Translations under genes and position numbers: made by a program | Source: Candidatus Vampirococcus lugosii | GTDB lineage: Bacteria; Patescibacteriota; Gracilibacteria; Absconditabacterales; Absconditicoccaceae | NCBI RefSeq assembly: GCF_018420025.1 | Contig: NZ_JAEDAM010000043.1 | Coordinates: 1 to 8,645, forward strand | Direction of reading: 5' to 3' | Length of the DNA stretch: 8,645 nt | Notes under the pieces: model-generated | Database searches by the model: none | What the model was told of the DNA's origin: nothing | Seen by the model: the letters and a program-made list of their open reading frames with translations, nothing else | Shown here: positions 1-8,645 of the stretch, piece by piece | Numbering within the stretch: position 1 is the stretch's first letter | Layout: every line of letters starts with the position of its first letter

Positions 1-568
1 TACCTCCCTTCTTTGATTCAGTTATAATCTCAAAACTGAATTGAACATAATTCTTTGTAATGATATACGAGTTCAATCTCTTCCCAATATTATTATATTT
101 GTTGAAGTGTTTGTGATACTTTATTGGTAAGTCTATAATCATTTTATTACCAACACTGGCTATGTGTAACCAAGCATCGAATAATCTACTTTCTTCGGTT
201 TTATATCCACTATTCCTTGTTGGCACTAAGTCAGCAATGGTACAACTAACATACATTCTGTTACCTTTATGTACTGGTACAACCATTTTATTTGGCTTAT
301 CTTTCCATCTTTGTTTTGTTGCCAACACCATGTCAATTGCTTCTCTTGCAGCAACCTTTCGTAGTCGTGCAGATAACCATGTTTCTGGTAAATCCACCAA
401 CGGTTTTAATAATTGTGATTTTGAAGGGATGTTATTGAGGTCAGACCAAAAATGTTGAATGAAGAAATTAACTACCTTTCCATATTCGGTTAAGATAGTA
501 TTTAATTCCAACATCTTTTTCTTTGTTGTGAACTTCAAACTACATTTGGTTGACCTTATTAGTTTCAT
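1..568 (-). CDS. tnpB: TnpB/OrfB-like protein (IS607-associated, RNA-guided nuclease family); N-terminal 189 codons only, the rest lies beyond the left edge
   Basis: Not in the supplied track because there is no stop inside the window. Hand check: the minus-strand frame with codon tops at 568, 565 ... 4 has no TAA/TAG/TGA from 568 down to 2. The ATG at 568-566 overlaps the tnpA stop (TGA 567-565) as ATGA. Translation: MKLIRSTKCSLKFTTKKKMLELNTILTEYGKVVNFFIQHFWSDLNNIPSKSQLLKPLVDLPETWLSARLRKVAAREAIDMVLATKQRWKDKPNKMVVPVHKGNRMYVSCTIADLVPTRNSGYKTEESRLFDAWLHIASVGNKMIIDLPIKYHKHFNKYNNIGKRLNSYIITKNYVQFSFEIITESKKGG. This has the layout I recognise from TnpB N-terminal halves and stops just before where the RuvC-I GxDxG motif would be. 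It sits directly downstream of an IS607-type tnpA. Recognition is from memory of the family; no search was run. Confidence 0.8.
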   Translation of the reverse strand, partial: MKLIRSTKCSLKFTTKKKMLELNTILTEYGKVVNFFIQHFWSDLNNIPSKSQLLKPLVDLPETWLSARLRKVAAREAIDMVLATKQRWKDKPNKMVVPVHKGNRMYVSCTIADLVPTRNSGYKTEESRLFDAWLHIASVGNKMIIDLPIKYHKHFNKYNNIGKRLNSYIITKNYVQFSFEIITESKKGG

Positions 569-1182
569 TTCTTTTTTTGTTCTTTCAAATCTTTTTTACG
601 TTTAACGCTACGCTTACCATATAATTTACCACTAAAACTTGCCATGAGCATCATAATGTCATTAACAAATTCTTCTTCCTCTGAAATGTTTTTGTTTTCA
701 ATACATTCAATTTCTACATCATAACTATTAAAGAAGGTCTTAATCAAATTATATTGAAATCTGGTTAAACGGTCTTTGTTTTCAATTACAATTTTAATGA
801 TTTTTTTCTTAATAACCAAATCCACGAGTTTAGTGAATCCCACTCTCGTATCGGATAATCCAGAACCAACATCTTTTATTATATGTTCAACCTTATATTT
901 TTTCTTCGCACAATACTCCGATATTCTTTGAGATTGTCTATCCAAATCTCCTTTCTGTTTTTGTTCGTGAGAACTAACTCTGGCATAGGTTGCAACCGAA
1001 TGGTTAATATATTCGATTTTTTGTTCTCCCATGAATTTTAAAATATCATTTTCATTATATTTTCGATGACCACCAACAGTTCTAATTGATGAAAGTTTTC
1101 CTTCATTATCCCAAATACGAAGGGTTTTCTTGGTTACTCCAAGAAGTTCAGATACCTTTTGTATTGATAAGAGTTTACTCAT
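565..1182 (-). CDS. tnpA: IS607-family transposase TnpA (serine recombinase with N-terminal MerR-like HTH)
   Basis: N-terminal HTH (LLSIQKVSELLGVTKKTLRIWDNEGKL...GGHRKY) is followed by a serine-recombinase core (ATYARVSSHEQKQKGDLDRQ with the nucleophile Ser in YARVSS; IVIENKDRLTRF). HTH-then-catalytic order is characteristic of IS607 TnpA. The track start at 1194 is a TTG codon (plus-strand caa at 1192-1194). The ATG at 1182-1180 (MSKLLSIQ...) is the more likely start. Confidence 0.92.
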   Translation of the reverse strand: MSKLLSIQKVSELLGVTKKTLRIWDNEGKLSSIRTVGGHRKYNENDILKFMGEQKIEYINHSVATYARVSSHEQKQKGDLDRQSQRISEYCAKKKYKVEHIIKDVGSGLSDTRVGFTKLVDLVIKKKIIKIVIENKDRLTRFQYNLIKTFFNSYDVEIECIENKNISEEEEFVNDIMMLMASFSGKLYGKRSVKRKKDLKEQKKK

Positions 1183-1390
1183 TAGACTGTTCAAGAATTT
1201 TTAAAATAATTTCTTTACTGGAATCCAAAATCTTCTGAAATTCCCAAACTGAAATATCTTCATCAATATCAAGTTCAAAAGGTATTGGGTACACGTCACC
1301 ATTGTCGAGTTCGAATTCGTCTTTATCGACACGAACTACATTTAATGACTTCTTTTTAAGGTTCTCCATAATTTTATTAATCTTTTTCAT
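1175..1390 (-). CDS. Small acidic hypothetical protein (71 aa), translationally coupled to tnpA
   Basis: ATG at 1390-1388. Its stop TAA (1177-1175) overlaps the tnpA ATG (1182-1180) in the string ATGAGTAA. It has an acidic core (DKDEFELDNGDVYPIPFELDIDEDISVWE). I recognise no family. Confidence 0.5.
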   Translation of the reverse strand: MKKINKIMENLKKKSLNVVRVDKDEFELDNGDVYPIPFELDIDEDISVWEFQKILDSSKEIILKILEQSNE

Positions 1391-1430
1391 ATATAAATAC
1401 TTTAAATTTTCGTAAAAGTAATAAAATTTA

Positions 1431-1470
1431 GTTAAAATAAGTAGATTTTTGTATAATTTTGTTTAATTAT
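1431..1470. repeat. Four tandem 10-bp units, each starting with GT, in phase with the helical repeat (gttaaaataa/gtagattttt/gtataatttt/gtttaattat)
   Basis: Read directly: G occurs at 1431, 1441, 1451 and 1461 in a spacer that is otherwise almost free of G/C. The units are followed by palindromes GTTAAC (1473-1478) and GTTAATTAAC (1480-1489). Function is not established. Confidence 0.4.
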
Positions 1471-1473
1471 TTG

Positions 1474-1887
1474 TTAACTGTTAATTAACCCATTATCAAG
1501 TTTCATGTATTGATAAATTGGTTTATAATCGACAAAACAAAATTCTTTTTTATCAGGCATAATATATAAATCTATATTATATTTAAGAACAAAATCATTC
1601 CACCACTTATATTTTAAGCATGCATTTGTATCACATAAAATTAAAATAACTCTTTTAAAATCACCATTTATAATTCTATTTGAAATCATTTCTAATGAAT
1701 GAACTCCTATTATAGTAATTTCGTCATCAGTTATTTTTTCTGTTTTTTTACCACAATAAATACCCATATTTGTATTTTTACCAAAAAAATTATTAAATTT
1801 TACATTAGAAACATATAAGTCACAATCTAATGCTTCTGATAAATAAGGTGCTGCAAAAAATGCACTGTGTTCTGTAAGTATTATCAT
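1474..1887 (-). CDS. Hypothetical protein (137 aa), last gene of the glycosyltransferase operon
   Basis: ATG-initiated ORF lying 3 nt downstream of the preceding gene, on the same strand, which implies co-transcription. I recognise no motif with confidence. Confidence 0.6.
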   Translation of the reverse strand: MIILTEHSAFFAAPYLSEALDCDLYVSNVKFNNFFGKNTNMGIYCGKKTEKITDDEITIIGVHSLEMISNRIINGDFKRVILILCDTNACLKYKWWNDFVLKYNIDLYIMPDKKEFCFVDYKPIYQYMKLDNGLINS

Positions 1888-1890
1888 GTT

Positions 1891-2568
1891 TTATTTAATT
1901 TTAAATCTTGATTTTTTTCTTTTTAACAATGAAAAATATTTAGGACTATCATAAATTGGATTTTTTGTAATTAAATATTTTAATTCTGGATTTAAAAAAA
2001 TAGCAAAATTAGCTGATAATTGGTCTCTATGGGAATAGTTTTTTATCTCAAACCACCAATCATCAAAGAATTTTTTAACTCTTTCATTATTTTTAAACAA
2101 AATAACACCACCTTCAATCAATCCATTATTATATTCATAACCAAATTCTTTATGTCTTTCTTTTATTTTTTCAATGATTTCTTTTTTATCATATTTATTT
2201 TCAACAATAACATTAAATTGGTCTTTAATGCTTTTTTGTCTATGTTTCATAAATACAATATCTTTATTATCCAATCTTTTCAAATATTCGTTAATATCTT
2301 TAATTATCTTTATTCTACCATCAATGTAAAGATATACACCATATTTATTTAAATGTTTTAGTACTTGTGTTTTATACTCTTTTGATAATTTAATGTGGTC
2401 AATTTCATTTTTTGAATTATTATCGATATATATTATTTTCCAAAACTTTGATTTTATATTTCTATTATCTGTAAAACAAATATAATCCCAACCATTTGAT
2501 TTTATGTTATTATCATTTAAATCACAATAATTATTCGTAATCACGGTATATACACACTTTTTATTCAT
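1891..2568 (-). CDS. DUF616/TOD1-like putative glycosyltransferase
   Basis: N-terminal CVYTVITNNYCDLND...WDYICFTD and C-terminal SHRDQLSANFA match the pattern I recall for the DUF616 family (vYTaIfGnYD ... cFtD ... RDQLSf.y). Its ATG overlaps the upstream stop as ATGA (2568-2565). Confidence 0.65.
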   Translation of the reverse strand: MNKKCVYTVITNNYCDLNDNNIKSNGWDYICFTDNRNIKSKFWKIIYIDNNSKNEIDHIKLSKEYKTQVLKHLNKYGVYLYIDGRIKIIKDINEYLKRLDNKDIVFMKHRQKSIKDQFNVIVENKYDKKEIIEKIKERHKEFGYEYNNGLIEGGVILFKNNERVKKFFDDWWFEIKNYSHRDQLSANFAIFLNPELKYLITKNPIYDSPKYFSLLKRKKSRFKIK

Positions 2569-3611
2569 AATATTTCAACAAAACCATTAACTTCTCTTGA
2601 GATGGATTTGACTTCTTTTTTCAATGATTTTTTTAATAAATGATATTTTTTTCTCATCACTGATTTCATTGATGTATTATTGTTAATTGTTAATGCATTT
2701 GAATGTTTTCTTCTTAGGAAAAGAGATTTATTTAAGTTAAAAATTTTTATATTGTTATTTGCAAATCTCAACAATAATTCACCATCTGCAGCACAAATCC
2801 AAGGCATATAACCACCAAATTCATCAATTATTTTTTTCTTATAAAATATTACGCCACCAGAATATACTTTTTTATTGGTATATACTTCTTTATTTGAAAA
2901 ATTAATGTATTTAAATTTTATTACATCGTTATTTTCAATAACCAACATTATTTCATTAACCATATTATATAACATAATATCATCACTATCAAATCGAATA
3001 ATATTTTCAAATTTTACTAAATTTAATAATGTATTTGAAGTAACATATGTCCCTTTATTACTTTCCATTAAATAAATCTGTAAATTACGATACTTATAAC
3101 GAATTTTCATTAACTTATTTAAAGTTTTTTCACACCCATCAACTCCAACCAATATTTCATAATTATTAAAACCATCGAAGTATGTTTGTTTTTCAATACT
3201 ATCCAAACATTCTTCAATATAATTTTGTGTTTGATATGCCGTAACTATTATTGAAATTGGTTGTCTATCTTCAATTGTAATTAAATTAGAAACAACATCA
3301 TTATTTATTAATTTCGATTTGTTTGATTTAACCAATTCGACATTTACGGGCTGTATTTGCCCCAAACGTCTTTTCATTTTATCATCCATGACTTCATTAC
3401 TATTTGATTTTGGTTTATATATTATTTGTTGTTCATTTATAACCTTATCTTTAGTAACGTCTTTATTAACTGGTGTACTTTTTAGTTCATTATCAATCTT
3501 GGTCTTATATGGAGATTTTGATTTAACAATCTTATTTAAAGAAGTTTTTTTTTGTGTGTATTCAACCTTCTTTTTTATTATTTTTTTTATATTTGATTGT
3601 CTTCGTTTCAT
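2565..3611 (-). CDS. GT2-family glycosyltransferase with a lysine-rich N-terminal extension of about 118 aa
   Basis: Classical GT2 (GT-A) signature from residue ~119: ISIIVTAYQTQNYIEECLDSIEKQTY...YEILVGVDGCEKT...NKGTYVTSNTLL...IRFDSDDIM (DxD = DSDD). The N-terminus, MKRRQSNIKKIIKKKVEYTQKKTSLNKIVKSKSPYKTK..., is basic and low-complexity. Confidence 0.9.
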   Translation of the reverse strand: MKRRQSNIKKIIKKKVEYTQKKTSLNKIVKSKSPYKTKIDNELKSTPVNKDVTKDKVINEQQIIYKPKSNSNEVMDDKMKRRLGQIQPVNVELVKSNKSKLINNDVVSNLITIEDRQPISIIVTAYQTQNYIEECLDSIEKQTYFDGFNNYEILVGVDGCEKTLNKLMKIRYKYRNLQIYLMESNKGTYVTSNTLLNLVKFENIIRFDSDDIMLYNMVNEIMLVIENNDVIKFKYINFSNKEVYTNKKVYSGGVIFYKKKIIDEFGGYMPWICAADGELLLRFANNNIKIFNLNKSLFLRRKHSNALTINNNTSMKSVMRKKYHLLKKSLKKEVKSISREVNGFVEIL

Positions 3612-3638
3612 AAATTAATATATAATATATTATTTTCT

Positions 3639-4451
3639 TCAAAATCCATAATATTTAGATAAAACTATTTCAGGTTTAATATTAATTATATTATATTTAT
3701 GTCCATCAGCAGAAATAGCAATATTTTCATTTTCATAATTCAAATAAGCATCACGAACTTTATTAAAATGTTGTATGTTATTACCATACCTTAATTTTGA
3801 TGCAGCATTATATATTTTTTTAAAAATATCTTTTCTAACATAACTTAGATGATGCATCTTAATAAAAGACTTATCTAAAATATTAATTAAATTATTTTGT
3901 TTTATTCCTACTTTTCTTGTTGGGTCTACCTTGACACCACAAGGAAAATTCATTACTAAGTCATATTTTACAGGAAAAAAACCGCTTACGTATAAATCAC
4001 CATCCATATATTTAGATGAATTAATTAAATATTTTGTATCTTTATAATAAGCAACTAAAGGAAGATATGTTACTATTTCTGGATTGGTTTTATGTAATTC
4101 AATTAATTTATTAAATTCTTCAGTAACATAAAATTCATCACAATCCAATGTCATATAATGTGTACATCCCTTTGCCTGTGCCAATCTTTTTCCCTGATTT
4201 CTTTTATTAATTTGATTTTGGTGAATTGATGTTGATTTATCTAATCTAAAAAATACTAAATCATTAACTAATCCTCTATTTTTAAGGGATTTAACTATAT
4301 TAATTTCCTTTTCAGTTAACTTTTCATCATAATAACTTGTTGTTTGAAATATTATTGATATGTGATCAACTACATTTCTTATTTGATTAATCGAATCTTC
4401 CAGTAATTCAACACCATCAAAAACATTATAACTAACACCAAATTTATACAT
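3639..4451 (-). CDS. Putative GT-A fold glycosyltransferase
   Basis: The N-terminal strand plus helix (FGVSYNVFDGVELLEDSINQIRNVVDHISIIFQ) and a DxD-type motif (HYMTLDCDEFY) are typical of GT-A enzymes. It is embedded between two clear GT genes with gaps of 27 and 5 nt. Confidence 0.6.
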   Translation of the reverse strand: MYKFGVSYNVFDGVELLEDSINQIRNVVDHISIIFQTTSYYDEKLTEKEINIVKSLKNRGLVNDLVFFRLDKSTSIHQNQINKRNQGKRLAQAKGCTHYMTLDCDEFYVTEEFNKLIELHKTNPEIVTYLPLVAYYKDTKYLINSSKYMDGDLYVSGFFPVKYDLVMNFPCGVKVDPTRKVGIKQNNLINILDKSFIKMHHLSYVRKDIFKKIYNAASKLRYGNNIQHFNKVRDAYLNYENENIAISADGHKYNIINIKPEIVLSKYYGF

Positions 4452-4456
4452 AATTA

Positions 4457-5942
4457 CTACAAATTTATATTATTTTCATTTATAAATACTAATAATTTTT
4501 TATAATCCTCAACAAATCTCTCATTTCCACCACTTATTTTATTTCTTGATATAGATTCGTAGTGAATGGCAACTGCGTCACTAACAGTAATATTTTTTAA
4601 ACCCAATGATTTACATCTCAAATTTAATTCAACATCTTCTAAACATTCAATATAATCTTCATTGAAGCCATCAAAAGATTTAAATAATTTCTTTTTTATT
4701 AATAAAAATCCACCCGTATTACCGATTGAATTGTAATTAACATCAGTAGAATAATTATTTATTTTTTTTATGTCTTTATGTGAGATCATTAATCTATCAT
4801 CGTTCATTGATAATGTTATCCCATTATGCTGAATAGATGAATCACCATAATGTAATCTAATACCAATAGTACCGACAGTATCTTTATTTTCATTATAAAT
4901 CTGAACACATCTGCTTAATGCATCATTCAATAAAACAATGTCGTCATTGCAAAATAATAATAATTCAGTATCGTCTGATACATGATTTTTAACCACATCA
5001 TTATTAATTTTAGCAAAATTATAATAATTATATTTTATTAATTTAATTCTACTATTCAATAAACTCTTATATGTTTCGAAAACTTCTGGTTGACTTCCGG
5101 TATCTGCAATAATAATCTCATAATTATCATATTCAACTACATTATTCCATGAATTAATGTTATTGATTATGTATTTAAGATTATTTTTTGTTGGTATTAT
5201 TACAGTTACTTTTGGTTTTGATGTTAATTCAATATCAAAATCTTCAAAATCTGGTAATACCGAAATAGGTAATTCATCTTTATATTTTTCAGCCAATTGC
5301 TTACGACTTTCTTCCCACTGCTGATTGGTTTGACCAACACTTTTATGTAATATTCTAATATCTGTTGTAACGCCAATATTACAACCGTCCAAGTAGTTAG
5401 GTAAACAAAAACTGGTGTCGTAGTGATGAAATCCTTTAAAATCTTCGTCAAAATAGTGTTCTAAATTACTTGGATTAACTGCCATGAATAATCCATCGAT
5501 TAAAACAGTTGGTGTTATCTGACCCTTTCTTTCCACAGAGTATTGGCTAGTCCATTCCTGAATTCCATCTGTATGATCGACAATACCCACCATTTTAGTT
5601 CTGTCTGTCCACCACACACCGTTTTCCGGCATGTAAGTGCTACCCGCTACACCAATAATATCGTAATCGGTGAAATTGAATTTATGTAGTAAAATCTTGC
5701 CCCAATTTTTTGTTCTGAATATAATATCTGGATGTACAAATAATATAATAACATTATCCCCCTTATATTTATCAAGTGCTTTATTATAAATCTCAGTTAA
5801 TGAAAATTGATTATAGTTTTCATAACAAACAATATCATAGTTTTTAATACCGATGGTTTGTTTAATATGTTCAATAAATTTATTATTCTCAATATCACCT
5901 AAATGTGATGAAAATATTGTAATTATTTTATTTTTTTTTCAT
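4457..5942 (-). CDS. Two-domain glycosyltransferase: N-terminal Glyco_tranf_2_5-like GT-A domain plus C-terminal GT2 domain. As assembled, the ATG is out of frame by one base in an A9 tract
   Basis: C-terminal domain: KVTVIIPTKNNLKYI...YEIIIADTGSQPE...LLLFCNDDIVL (GT2). N-terminal domain: IDGLFMAVNPSNLEHYFDEDFKGFHHYDTSFCL...IRILHKSVG, matching the pattern I recall for Glyco_tranf_2_5. The track starts at ATG 5632, but I verified that the same frame is open up to 5938. That stretch encodes KKNKIITIFSSHLGD...GDNVIILFVHPDIIF...DIIGVAGSTY, the missing first half of the N-terminal GT-A domain. This frame contains no ATG/GTG/TTG. ATG 5942-5940 joins it if the A9 run (5931-5939) is read as A8, giving 494 aa. 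Confidence 0.8.
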
Positions 5943-6183
5943 AATTAATCCACTTATCATATTTTCTACTTAATCCAAATTTACTACCAGAATAGATAAA
6001 ATTCATAAATTTTATTGCATCCTTCTGTTTAGATATTGTTATTTGCGAATATCTACCTTGTTTAGTTATATATCTATAACATTTATAATCAATATCAATT
6101 AAATTAAAAAAAGACCAATCATAGTCGTAAGTTCCACTAAATCTAACCCTAATATAATTTCTACCATCACATGAGATTGACAT
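5923..6183 (-). CDS. LAGLIDADG homing endonuclease, C-terminal fragment
   Basis: In this frame the five codons just upstream of its ATG read DADGN, so the frame carries the rest of the motif (FFRGFF|DADGNMSISCDG...). The C-terminal GLSRKYDKW resembles the conserved L.RK tail of this family. Confidence 0.8.
   Translation of the reverse strand: MSISCDGRNYIRVRFSGTYDYDWSFFNLIDIDYKCYRYITKQGRYSQITISKQKDAIKFMNFIYSGSKFGLSRKYDKWINYEKKIK
5931..5939. repeat. T9 (sense-strand A9) homopolymer immediately after ATG 5942-5940
   Basis: Counted directly in tttttttttc at 5931-5940. The sense strand reads ATG AAA AAA AAA TAA as assembled. Confidence 0.95.
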
Positions 6184-6196
6184 ATTACCATCTGCA

Positions 6197-6916
6197 TCAA
6201 AAAAACCCTCTAAAAAAATATGAATGATAGATTTTATCTATATATTCTAATAAAATTTGAGGATTAATGTATGATTTTAGGTCGAATTTATATTTTATTA
6301 GTTCGTTAACTAATAAAATATTATGTGTTGATACACATAATTGATTATTTACTCTTTTGTTGTTAAAAAATTTTTTAATTGGTTTACTTATATTCCAATC
6401 ACCTGTTTTTCTAAAAACATCAATTAATTCAATCATATCACTTTCAATCATATTTACAACAATACGTGAAAGATTCACATTTATATTACCATCTCCCCAA
6501 ATTAGCCCCAATATATAAACTATTTCAGGTGTATTAAATTTTAAAAAGGTATTATAATTAACTTTATTTGAACGTAATTTAAATCCTCTCCTATTATTTT
6601 TTAATTTATGTTGAGTATCTGAATATTTAATATTTAATGAATTTGCTTTTTTAATAATATCAGATATTTCTCGATTTAATTCTTTTGCAACTAACTCTGA
6701 ACCATATGTTGAATAATTGGTTCTTAAAAAATCAATTTCATTAAGAGACCATTTATTACTTTGACCTAAAAATTTTCTATTAATCTTTAATTCCTTTACT
6801 TTAGAATAAATAGATTCTTTGGTTCTATCTAAATTAATAGAACAATACTCTCTACCATACAATGGATATTTTTCAATTAAGAAATTAATATCATCTTTAG
6901 TCCAAGTTTTTTTCAT
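6197..6916 (-). CDS. LAGLIDADG homing endonuclease, N-terminal fragment (two Myb/SANT-like HTH repeats plus the first LAGLIDADG motif)
   Basis: First motif YILGLIWGDGNI is at 6479-6517. There is a tandem repeat W-x-x-[DN]-[DE]-I-[ND]-F-L-x3-Y-x2-YG-x-E ... L-[DN]-R ... (residues ~5-46 and ~56-97). The fragment ends ...YHSYFFRGFF then TGA (6199-6197), half-way through the second motif. Confidence 0.85.
   Translation of the reverse strand: MKKTWTKDDINFLIEKYPLYGREYCSINLDRTKESIYSKVKELKINRKFLGQSNKWSLNEIDFLRTNYSTYGSELVAKELNREISDIIKKANSLNIKYSDTQHKLKNNRRGFKLRSNKVNYNTFLKFNTPEIVYILGLIWGDGNINVNLSRIVVNMIESDMIELIDVFRKTGDWNISKPIKKFFNNKRVNNQLCVSTHNILLVNELIKYKFDLKSYINPQILLEYIDKIYHSYFFRGFF
6199..6205. repeat. 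A7 (sense-strand T7) homopolymer at the homing-endonuclease frameshift point
   Basis: Counted directly: plus strand gcatc-aaaaaaa-ccctc. The sense strand reads AGA GGG TTT TTT TGA. Confidence 0.95.
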
Positions 6917-7787
6917 ATAATGCTTTTTTTATTGTTTCATATTCTTTGGCTTTTTCCAATTCACATCTGTCACCATAACCAATTTCAATCATTCTTTTAA
7001 AAAACGGTTCAAAATCTTTAGCATATTTAACTAATTCATCTAATATTGAACTATTATAATCTGGTGTTGAAGATGCAATGTTTTCAACTAATGATAACAT
7101 TGACGGTACAGATGAATTTATATATCTTAAAATTTCTCTCGCTCCTTTATTTATTATATATCGTGGTACATCATTTTTTTTAGCCCATTGAACAATTTGA
7201 TTCGGATAAACACCTACAAGTTTAAACATAATATCCCTATAATGTTTTATTATATTTCCTTGGTCTTTAGTAAAACCATAATTTTTCATGGCGATTGCTT
7301 TACTATTATTTCGTTGAACTTGGTGTTTTGTATTTTCCTGAACAGTATTTGGTGTTGTTGTTACTAAAAATGAATATCCGTATCGTAATAATTCTTCAAT
7401 TCTATCATTACACCAAATAGAAAAATCTGCAGATAACCATCTTGCAATTTCCAATGCTATGCCTTTGTGAACCCAAGTACCTTGTTGTTTATTTAAACCA
7501 CCTCTAACAACATTAACTGATTCTGGAAACATTTTCGCTAAGTTACTGAAATTCAACGACATCGGTATGTCGATGTCGTTGATACTCAATGACTTAGAAT
7601 TTCTTGTACAATATTTATATGTTATTTCTCTTCTGGTTGGGTCATCAAGAAAATGCCCGATGTTCTTACCAAACGGTTTAACCATATCAGTAACATTAAT
7701 CATTATGTTATTAATGTTATTTAAAAATGATACATCATATTTAACACCATTTTGAGAATATTTATATATTACAATATTATTTTTCAT
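6897..7787 (-). CDS. KilA-N domain protein with an uncharacterised C-terminal half
   Basis: YDVSFLNNINNIMINVTDMVKPFGKNIGHFL...VRGGLNKQQGTWVHKGIALEIARWLSADFSIWCNDRIEELL matches the KilA-N core (G-T-W-V-H ... A-x-W-L-S-x-x-F). The last 20 nt overlap the homing-endonuclease start. Confidence 0.85.
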   Translation of the reverse strand: MKNNIVIYKYSQNGVKYDVSFLNNINNIMINVTDMVKPFGKNIGHFLDDPTRREITYKYCTRNSKSLSINDIDIPMSLNFSNLAKMFPESVNVVRGGLNKQQGTWVHKGIALEIARWLSADFSIWCNDRIEELLRYGYSFLVTTTPNTVQENTKHQVQRNNSKAIAMKNYGFTKDQGNIIKHYRDIMFKLVGVYPNQIVQWAKKNDVPRYIINKGAREILRYINSSVPSMLSLVENIASSTPDYNSSILDELVKYAKDFEPFFKRMIEIGYGDRCELEKAKEYETIKKALYEKNLD

Positions 7788-7806
7788 ATAAAAAAATCTT
7801 ACAATT

Positions 7807-7820
7807 TTTGCAACTGCAAA
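7807..7820. promoter_or_regulatory. 14-bp palindrome TTTGCA-NN-TGCAAA in the 66-nt spacer upstream of the KilA-N gene
   Basis: Read directly (tttgcaactgcaaa). It is the only G/C-containing dyad in the largest spacer among the right-hand genes (7788-7853). Its function as operator, terminator or neither is not established. Confidence 0.3.
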
Positions 7821-7853
7821 CTTAACAAATTTAAACTAAATATACAAATTTAT

Positions 7854-8168
7854 TTACTGATTAATAATTGTTTCCATTATTGTCTCATAATCTTGTCTAA
7901 CTTTTGATAATGGAAATGGTATTCTAATTAAATCATTATCAACAATATCAAATTCACTAACATATTTAGAATTTGCTAATAAAATTAAAAAATCATAAAA
8001 TGGATTTCCATAATATTTTTGGCTTAATTTATCCAATCTACTAAATTCAGAATTCCATCTCTCATATTTATCAGTTGGATTAATGGGTAATTTAATAAAT
8101 GGCATCATGTTAGGTAAACCATTTTCTTGTCTTAATAAACTATATTTATCATAATCTTGTTTTGGCAT
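7854..8168 (-). CDS. LysM-like / phage tail protein X-like small protein
   Basis: SRLDKLSQKYYGNPFYDFLILLANSKYVSEFDIVDNDLIRIPFP resembles the LysM / Phage_tail_X pattern (D-x-[IL]-[AS]-x-x-YYG ... [IL]-x-x-AN ... L-x-IP). The assignment is by eye only. Confidence 0.5.
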   Translation of the reverse strand: MPKQDYDKYSLLRQENGLPNMMPFIKLPINPTDKYERWNSEFSRLDKLSQKYYGNPFYDFLILLANSKYVSEFDIVDNDLIRIPFPLSKVRQDYETIMETIINQ

Positions 8169-8214
8169 AATTGATATGTTGTGTTATAGTTCTGATGTAA
8201 AATTATTTATTTGT

Positions 8215-8624
8215 TTAATTATCATCATTATCATTATTATTATTAGATTCATTATCACCATCATTAACTCCATATTGTTTAGATTCAACAAACGATGGTG
8301 TTCTATATGTACCTTGATTAACATATGTTGAATTAGCATAATAATTAAAAGATAACGCATTTTGTAATGCATTAATTGGACCTCTTAATGATTGACCACC
8401 AATTATTTTTATTTGTAAACTAACATTAGCAATCATTGGTTGCATACCAAAACCTTCGGGATTCATATCCCAAGGTGAATCATCGTAATCAATAGTAAGA
8501 TTTTCAATAATTATTTTTGTATGAAAAAAATCACCAATTCTTAAAACACAAATTGGTTGACGACCAAAAACTGAATTTTTTGATCTAACAATACCATTTT
8601 CATCAACTTCTGGTTTTACATTCA
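8215..8624 (-). CDS. Partial (5'-truncated) protein, possibly a tail-tube/baseplate-type virion protein, with an Asn/Asp-rich tail
   Basis: The frame is open to the contig end. The 'start' in the track is a TTG created at the adapter junction, so the true N-terminus is missing. ...DYDDSPWDMNPEGFGMQPMIANVSLQIKIIGGQSL... recalls the C-terminal strands of tube-fold baseplate proteins, but my recollection is weak. Its neighbour is a LysM/tail-X-like gene. Confidence 0.35.
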
Positions 8625-8645
8625 AGATCGGAAGAGCAACACGTC
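8625..8645. other. Illumina TruSeq adapter remnant (non-biological sequence)
   Basis: AGATCGGAAGAGCAACACGTC versus adapter AGATCGGAAGAGCACACGTC...: 13-nt perfect prefix, then one extra A. It is 12/21 G+C in a far more AT-rich context, at the extreme contig end. Confidence 0.9.

Follow-up and report, generated by a model that had tools for sequence, protein, structure and literature searches.

A poly(A) frameshift conceals the start of a two-domain glycosyltransferase gene on a virus-like contig labelled Candidatus Vampirococcus lugosii

Gene content and origin of the contig

The stretch of DNA analyzed here (8,645 nucleotides; hereafter the window) carries a glycosyltransferase (GT) gene whose called ORF is identical to MBS8122126.1, a protein labelled 'Candidatus Vampirococcus lugosii' and located on an 8,645-bp contig. 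On the same strand, the GT gene is preceded by a homing endonuclease gene, a KilA-N gene, and a baseplate-like gene. The features of the locus, including the sites at which the window differs from other public sequence data, are as follows:

4457–5632, minus strand: called ORF of 391 aa (NCBI MBS8122126.1), encoding the rest of Glyco_tranf_2_5 and a complete Glycos_transf_2 domain
5633–5938, minus strand: coding sequence for GT residues 2–103, left uncalled by gene callers
5931–5939, minus strand: A9 homopolymer directly after the ATG, followed by TAAAATAATT; A8 in two other runs
5940–5942, minus strand: true GT start codon (ATG), one base out of frame in the deposited assembly; homologues start here
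5923–6916, minus strand: probable free-standing double-motif LAGLIDADG homing endonuclease, split by a +1 frameshift into ORFs of 239 and 86 aa
6199–6205, minus strand: T7 run in the second LAGLIDADG motif (GFF|DADG); T6 in contigs L071 and L072, where the frame is restored
6829, minus strand: substitution, G in the window (GAT, Asp30 of the endonuclease) and A in L071, L072, and L073 (AAT, Asn30)
6897–7787, minus strand: KilA-N domain gene, from profile matches and comparison with relatives
7854–8168, minus strand: gp53-like baseplate wedge gene (phrog_7145, E 4e-4, a weak match)
8625–8645, plus strand: remnant of the Illumina TruSeq adapter, AGATCGGAAGAGCAACACGTC; the canonical form, AGATCGGAAGAGCACACGTC, has one A fewer

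The V. lugosii genome was obtained from three sets of about 10 micromanipulated host-epibiont consortia (PMC8080830). After amplification of their DNA by MDA or MALBAC, 2x125 reads were generated on a HiSeq; SPAdes 3.6 was the assembler, and contigs were binned by their tetranucleotide composition (PMC8080830). In Vampirococcus, UGA codes for Gly. In the contig, TGA instead terminates three intact genes, with an ATGA overlap at two of these stops, and it never occurs in frame across the 12 minus-strand ORFs that tile the window; as such, the contig uses the standard code. The gene content comprises the weakly gp53-like baseplate wedge, KilA-N, the homing endonuclease, several GTs, and an IS607-type TnpA/TnpB pair, and relatives are located on IMG/VR viral contigs. 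Judged by its genes and code, the contig is that of a standard-code virus and not a piece of the Vampirococcus chromosome. The G+C content of the window is about 25%, and the viral contig was binned with Vampirococcus because of this low G+C.

The plus-strand end of the window is of technical origin. From position 8625, where the window has adapter, other runs carry viral sequence onward, and the canonical adapter is a string found in 1,437 papers. Scans of the window for tRNAs and Rfam families returned no match, nor did blastn of positions 4457–6916 against the INPHARED phage collection. Exact 24-mers beside the A tract were absent from the viral, metagenome, and genome collections searched, and a search with the neighboring 1077-aa protein, aimed at gauging the error rate of the Vampirococcus assembly on further viral sequence, gave no fragments of that assembly among the best 120 matches.

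The GT gene starts upstream of the called ORF

Read directly on the minus strand, the region runs ...TGG ATT AAT T, then the ATG at 5942, then AAAAAAAAA TAAAATAATTACA... The called ORF begins at ATG 5632 and stops at 4457, and translation shows that its frame is open upstream to 5938; beyond that point the same frame meets TGA at 5941–5939 and then TAA at 5947–5945. Since the ORF listing places the start at 5632, the open segment from 5938 down to that position holds no in-frame ATG, GTG, or TTG. As assembled, the upstream ATG and its A9 run read ATG AAA AAA AAA TAA, and repair to A8 yields MKKNKIITIFSS..., a protein of 494 aa. The extra A thus puts ATG 5942 out of frame, and gene callers pick the internal Met 5632. 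An initial annotation of this DNA had described the arrangement, and its coordinates, open frame, absence of start codons, translation, and A8 repair were all found to be correct by direct reading and translation. The same is true of its remark that the A9 tract also encodes the final codons of the upstream endonuclease ORF (5923–6183, ending ...NYEKKIK and stop).

The uncalled segment translates as KKNKIITIFSSHLGD...GSTY, and its coding content is far beyond chance. It represents the first half of a Glyco_tranf_2_5 GT-A domain, with the first beta strand (beta-1; IITIFSSH) and the FVHPD acidic motif included. These 102 residues alone match Pfam Glyco_tranf_2_5 (E 4e-6, profile positions 17–94), which bears out the earlier proposal that the N-terminal half of the first GT-A domain lies hidden here. 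The profile search with the repaired 494-aa protein points the same way—i.e. the Glyco_tranf_2_5 (PF13712) score rises from 55 bits for the called ORF, which covers profile positions 96–210 only, to 95.4 bits (cut-off 27) over positions 17–210 of 210, so that the match now reaches the end of the profile. The repaired protein also holds a complete Glycos_transf_2 domain (PF00535; 51.3 bits, cut-off 23.3).

A search of 5.8 billion proteins returned 1,687 relatives of the repaired GT. Among the best ~100 of these 1,687, lengths are 488–505 aa, with some of 704–725 aa that have a third domain, and most cover 97–100% of the repaired protein at 50–74% identity. More than 100 homologues begin at the Met equivalent to ATG 5942 (MKKTK.../MKNN...), with N-termini such as MKKTKIVVVYSSHL, MKNNIVVVFSSHL, and MKKTKNKIVVIFSSHL compared with MKKNKIITIFSSHL in the repaired protein. 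Contig L071, which comes from another run, gives MKKNKIITIFSSHL... from ATG 5942 as it stands, and the A8 form is found in two other runs; both lines of evidence agree with the earlier claim that this ATG is the true start.

Other ways of starting the protein were considered and rejected. Met 5632 is not supported as the start of a natural isoform, as the corresponding alignment column is M or L in relatives, and no native start at this Met was seen among the homologues examined. P0088, the sole homologue that seemed to start there, has its gene cut by the contig end, with the frame open to base 1. Reading the region with code 25 (UGA = Gly) does not rescue the gene either: the TGA at 5941–5939 is read through, and TTA and the TAA at 5947–5945 follow without a start codon.

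A known two-domain architecture

From its profile matches, the gene clearly reads as that of an ordinary two-domain family-2 glycosyltransferase of 494 aa, with an N-terminal Glyco_tranf_2_5 domain and a C-terminal Glycos_transf_2 GT-A domain. This architecture (GT2) is clearly one already known. In alignment A1, the motifs SSHL, H70-x-D72, and GVAG are invariant. The nearest solved structures by sequence are K4CP chondroitin synthase (2z86/2z87) and heparosan synthase B (8viw), which are bifunctional polymerases. The likeness to such two-domain GT2 enzymes lies in the tandem GT-A domains, each with an acidic xDD/HxD motif, although sequence similarity to the solved structures is weak, at E 1.5e-6 to 2e-5 across some 120–130 residues. 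Hundreds of full-length homologues are found on viral and metagenomic contigs. The GT may act on a protein of the virion or on a glycan of the host surface. It sits in a cluster of 3–4 GT-like genes that adjoins the baseplate-like gene, and it is the head of that cluster.

The tract length would determine which parts of the enzyme are made. In the native A8 form, the GT would initiate at ATG 5942, within the last endonuclease codons. In the A9 form, translation from ATG 5942 would stop after MKKK, and a product started at Met 5632, if made, would be missing beta-1 and the domain 1 HxD motif but retain domain 2.

The upstream endonuclease is also frameshifted

The endonuclease is one 328-aa ORF (P0122) in L071 and L072, where it ends ...NYEKK and stop. 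The TAA of this intact form overlaps the GT start as ATGAAAAAAAATAA, an overlap of 14 nt. The LAGLIDADG motifs ILGLIWGDG and FRGFFDADG are readable both in P0122 and in the endonuclease repaired from the window. The repaired protein scores 16.1 bits against Pfam LAGLIDADG_1, which is below the cut-off of 23.1, and matches the PHROG family phrog_4645 ('endonuclease') with E 2.4e-16 over residues 74–320, a stretch that spans the break.

Compared with relatives, the KilA-N and endonuclease genes form a cassette of about 1.9 kb (about 5943–7853) between the baseplate-like gene and the GT. In L002–L007, L025, and L026, only a 49-nt spacer separates the gp53-like gene from the GT. On this comparison, the cassette is evidently an insertion.

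The same virus in other public runs

Near-identical copies of the locus were found only by exact-protein look-ups in Logan assemblies. One of them, L070 (SRR13241709), matches the window with 100% identity along 4,061 bp, the A9 run included; it starts inside the T run at 6199–6205. The comparison set consists of L071–L079, from SRR15425352, -53, -54, and -55, which jointly cover plus-strand positions 1196–8625 (7,430 bp). A literature search for a paper on the SRR runs found none.

Across these 7,430 bp, the window differs from the contigs of SRR15425352-55 at three places only: the SNP at 6829, T7 to T6, and A9 to A8. There is no synonymous or intergenic change in the 7.4 kb compared. A8 is present in L071 (SRR15425355) and L072 (SRR15425352), A9 in the window and L070. 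Specifically, A8 puts the ATG in frame in L071, which then translates as MKKNKIITIFSSHLGD... for 208 codons to the contig end, and L074 carries the remaining 491 GT codons without interruption. Together, the in-frame A8 of L071 and L072 and the sequence of L074 indicate that an intact 494-aa gene exists in nature in the same strain.

The window thus has one extra base in each of two A/T homopolymers, separated by 266 bp, and both insertions break a conserved ORF. The 21 other A/T runs of at least 7 nt are identical between the datasets—i.e. 2 of 23 are affected, and these lie within 270 bp. For example, a second A9 run (3545–3553), near the 5' end of another GT2 gene, is invariant in all runs that cover it, and so are three 8-nt runs (3581–3588, 4762–4769, and 7174–7181). 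The three differences are clustered in a stretch of 890 bp out of the 7,430 bp compared (P about 0.04 under a uniform distribution; P about 0.1 for the two indels alone).

Assembly was also disturbed at these sites. L070 begins inside the T run, and L074, from another run, begins inside the A run, which indicates that both runs were troublesome for assembly. The L070 start and the junction between L072 and L074 were considered as evidence of polymorphism and set aside: they hint at heterogeneity among reads, and the overlaps misfit a simple A8/A9 bubble.

The A tract is neither conserved nor enriched

The initial annotation had proposed that the tract is a slipped-strand switch, and comparison of related genomes and of base composition does not uphold this design. 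Among 60 related loci, the closest relative (L001) has A7 behind its start codon (ATG AAA AAA ACA AAA), the eight loci of the next clade (those with the 49-nt spacer) have A5, and all the remaining ones (>40) have at most one A. Tract length is therefore not conserved, and every related locus has an ordinary in-frame ATG located 1–6 codons ahead of the first beta strand.

A first-order Markov model of the window predicts 3.2 +/- 1.7 A/T runs of at least 9 nt, and 2 are observed; the length of the tract is not beyond chance. The tract encodes an MKK(N/T)K N-terminus, and half of the contig genes begin in a similar manner (MKKTW, MKKINK, MKNN, MNKK).

Origin of the extra A

On balance, and with moderate confidence, we favor an amplification or sequencing artefact as the likeliest source of the extra A, well ahead of a genetic switch. 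The native gene would consist of ATG 5942 followed by A8 (MKKNK...), overlapping the endonuclease stop by the 14 nt given above, and the A run of the deposited contig would be one base too long, shifting the ATG out of frame. Both the extra A and the extra T most likely result from polymerase slippage in whole-genome amplification or library PCR from a very small template pool, and the slip would then have been fixed in the consensus, with no regulatory device involved. With a handful of cells as the starting material for amplification, a slip made early by the polymerase can come to dominate the consensus.

Several observations support the view that the extra bases most likely arose in vitro. 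A8 and T6 each restore full-length ORFs that match homologues. The adapter remnant on this contig has itself gained an A, which is undeniably an error and likewise of the +1 type. In addition, two frame-destroying +1 homopolymer indels are present, yet no synonymous or intergenic change is found with them, and contigs break exactly at both runs (the starts of L070 and L074). The pattern resembles the homopolymer artefacts and pseudogene calls of amplified single-cell and mini-metagenome assemblies, in which a +1 indel in an A/T run likewise splits a conserved gene. Also shared are the MDA/MALBAC origin of the DNA, another such indel close by, and the +1 error in the adapter remnant; the window differs from such artefacts in that the affected long runs are few and close together.

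Other findings count against a technical origin. A9 is also the consensus in Logan's independent assembly of SRR13241709, which indicates that it is carried by the majority of reads in that run and is not a SPAdes glitch. Homopolymer error was not general, given that the 21 other A/T runs are unchanged. Moreover, relaxed selection on a decaying endonuclease accounts for the clustering of differences within 890 bp no less well than random technical error does.

These findings make it possible, if rather doubtful, that the sampled lineage carries a decaying endonuclease allele (D30, T7 frameshift) together with a spontaneous A8-to-A9 slip. This slip would block normal initiation of the GT and create a null or hypomorphic allele, possibly a leaky one through slippage of RNA polymerase or ribosomes on A9. 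Such an allele is consistent with an A9 consensus in two independent assemblies (the NCBI contig and L070), with the invariance of the other long homopolymers, and with the location of all three differences in or at the endonuclease gene, as expected under relaxed selection. A/T runs of 7–9 or more are subject to non-programmed transcriptional slippage that partly rescues frameshifts (PMC6260861), and slippage of this kind could partly rescue the A9 frameshift as well. The poly(A) frameshifts of Buchnera, Blochmannia, and Citrobacter tssM, which are rescued by polymerase infidelity, are the known counterparts: if A9 is real, the tract could similarly let some transcripts be corrected in an AT-rich genome. 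Unlike in those cases, however, an intact A8 allele coexists in public data and A9 shows no sign of being fixed or conserved. The set of changes, comprising two frameshifts and one non-synonymous substitution but nothing synonymous or intergenic across 7.4 kb, is also an odd spectrum for natural divergence, and the template was amplified from few cells and yielded a contig that holds a proven +1 error.

We consider it improbable that the tract is an adaptive slipped-strand switch, in which A8 (ON, 494 aa) and A9 (OFF) interconvert at high frequency and diversify viral glycosylation. The two tract lengths do occur in otherwise near-identical genomes, and the tract lies directly after the start codon of a GT gene, which is the classical position. 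The repeat also sets the frame as in a contingency locus, with A9 after the ATG and A8 restoring the frame. Hypermutable homopolymers are known in phage genomes, the example being poly-G tracts of Campylobacter phages (Sorensen et al. 2021, as cited in PMC11868660). Similarly, simple sequence repeat (SSR) contingency loci involve poly-G or poly-C in the LOS, LPS, and capsule GT genes of Campylobacter, Haemophilus, Neisseria, and Helicobacter, where a homopolymer at the 5' end of the ORF determines the frame by its length.

The tract of the window differs from SSR loci in being poly-A, of chance-level length in a genome of 25% G+C, and unconserved in orthologues. Neither the enrichment nor the retention in orthologues that marks contingency loci is found, and the tract falls within an MKK N-terminus that is common to many contig genes. 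A similar T6/T7 difference is present in the homing endonuclease, a non-surface gene that has no reason to be phase variable, and the window's second A9 run, also close to the 5' end of a GT gene, is invariant. The length variation consists of A8 in 2 runs and A9 in 1 run, this single A9 observation coming from DNA that was amplified by WGA and shows another +1 indel, and amplification confounds the comparison, which is one of assembled contigs. A phase-variation design, as claimed in the initial annotation, is thus not supported, given the absence of conservation and over-representation, the second +1 frameshift 266 bp away, and the amplified source. We likewise regard it as a long shot that A8/A9 is a genuine, recurrent viral polymorphism acting as a stochastic ON/OFF (full-length/truncated) toggle of the first catalytic domain of a glycan-modifying enzyme. 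The tract, which the endonuclease stop region and the GT start share, would then be a poly-A contingency locus in an environmental virus.

Programmed recoding is highly improbable. Under this reading, A9 would be native, and production of the full-length GT would always depend on slippage during transcription or on +1 frameshifting by the ribosome at AAA AAA AAA TAA. An A9 run followed by a stop codon is a plausible slippery context, but two runs of this strain carry A8 with the frame intact, and each orthologue examined has a normal in-frame ATG start, so that the out-of-frame arrangement is conserved in neither orthologues nor strains. There is also no conserved frameshift-stimulating feature.

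Consequences for annotation

If A9 is natural and recurrent, the locus would add a modest further case of viral expression heterogeneity driven by a homopolymer. Hypermutability of phage poly-G and rescue by slippage on poly-A are both already known, so even this favorable reading joins known kinds of variation. In practice, the analysis chiefly serves to correct the annotation of the contig. Specifically, the enzyme is 494 aa long and was truncated both in MBS8122126.1 (391 aa) and in the alternative RefSeq call (279 aa), and the 'hypothetical' ORFs of 86 and 239 aa are two pieces of one 328-aa probable homing endonuclease.

Differences between datasets in the homing endonuclease

Immediately upstream of the glycosyltransferase (GT), the window carries a LAGLIDADG homing endonuclease in two pieces, and its neighbor and the control tract discussed here are as follows:

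5923-6183 and 6197-6916, minus strand: LAGLIDADG homing endonuclease, two ORFs split by a +1 frameshift
5943-7853: cassette of about 1.9 kb with a KilA-N gene (6897-7787) and the endonuclease, an insertion relative to related loci
3545-3553, minus strand: second A9 run, in frame, about 20 codons into the GT2 gene 2565-3611

The frameshift site is a T7 run at 6199-6205 (minus strand), which falls within the second GFFDADG motif of the endonuclease, whereas the other public runs holding the same virus have T6 and encode an intact protein of 328 aa (P0122). The sole substitution between the window and these runs is at position 6829, where the minus strand reads G in the window and A in three contigs of the near-identical virus (L071, L072, and L073), so that residue 30 of the endonuclease is Asp in the former and Asn in the latter. 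All three differences that separate the window from these runs fall inside a span of 890 bp. The A9 run at 3545-3553 is unchanged in all other runs covering that stretch, so that homopolymer instability can usefully be judged against it as an internal control.

Mobile genes and possibly variable junctions

The KilA-N and endonuclease cassette sits between a gp53-like baseplate gene and the GT. In relatives, this site holds only a 49-nt spacer (L002, from the next clade, 3949-3997), while the closest related locus (L001) has a different ORF there, whose end lies 2 nt upstream of the GT start. Mobile genes may thus have a hotspot at this junction.

A further mobile element is found at the start of the window:

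565-1194, minus strand: IS607-type serine-recombinase TnpA (MerR HTH and resolvase)
within 1-1194, minus strand: TnpB-like ORF after TnpA, N-terminus only, running off the window start

One contig from SRR15425354 (L075) parts from the window sequence at about +1484 (L075 1751-1770), and two further Logan contigs end at window positions 1335 (L076) and 1196 (L077), which suggests that the IS607-type element or its junction is variable in the population.

Genetic code, origin, and ends of the contig

TGA terminates three intact genes (565-1194, 2565-3611, and 3639-4451) and never occurs in frame anywhere in the window; the contig is read with the standard code. This code and the viral gene content make it probable that the contig is a virus and was wrongly binned with Vampirococcus lugosii, whose genome uses code 25.

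ORFs 1891-2568 and 1474-1887 share one frame and are separated solely by TAA AAC ATG (1885-1893); they may be two genes, or a single one interrupted by an in-frame stop. The former matches the first half of a PHROG glycosyltransferase profile (407 positions).

The contig end is artificial:

8625-8645: remnant of an Illumina TruSeq adapter left untrimmed, AGATCGGAAGAGCAACACGTC, 1 A longer than the canonical adapter sequence

Because of this remnant, ORF 8215-8625 is artificially cut, and it runs on in L073, L078, and L079. Its full form is a 1077-aa protein (L078 2721-5954, SRR15425352, upstream of the window) in which no Pfam domain was found. Homologues of this protein number >1,500, and many of them lie on contigs 300-370 kb long, an indication that some members of the virus family have very large genomes.
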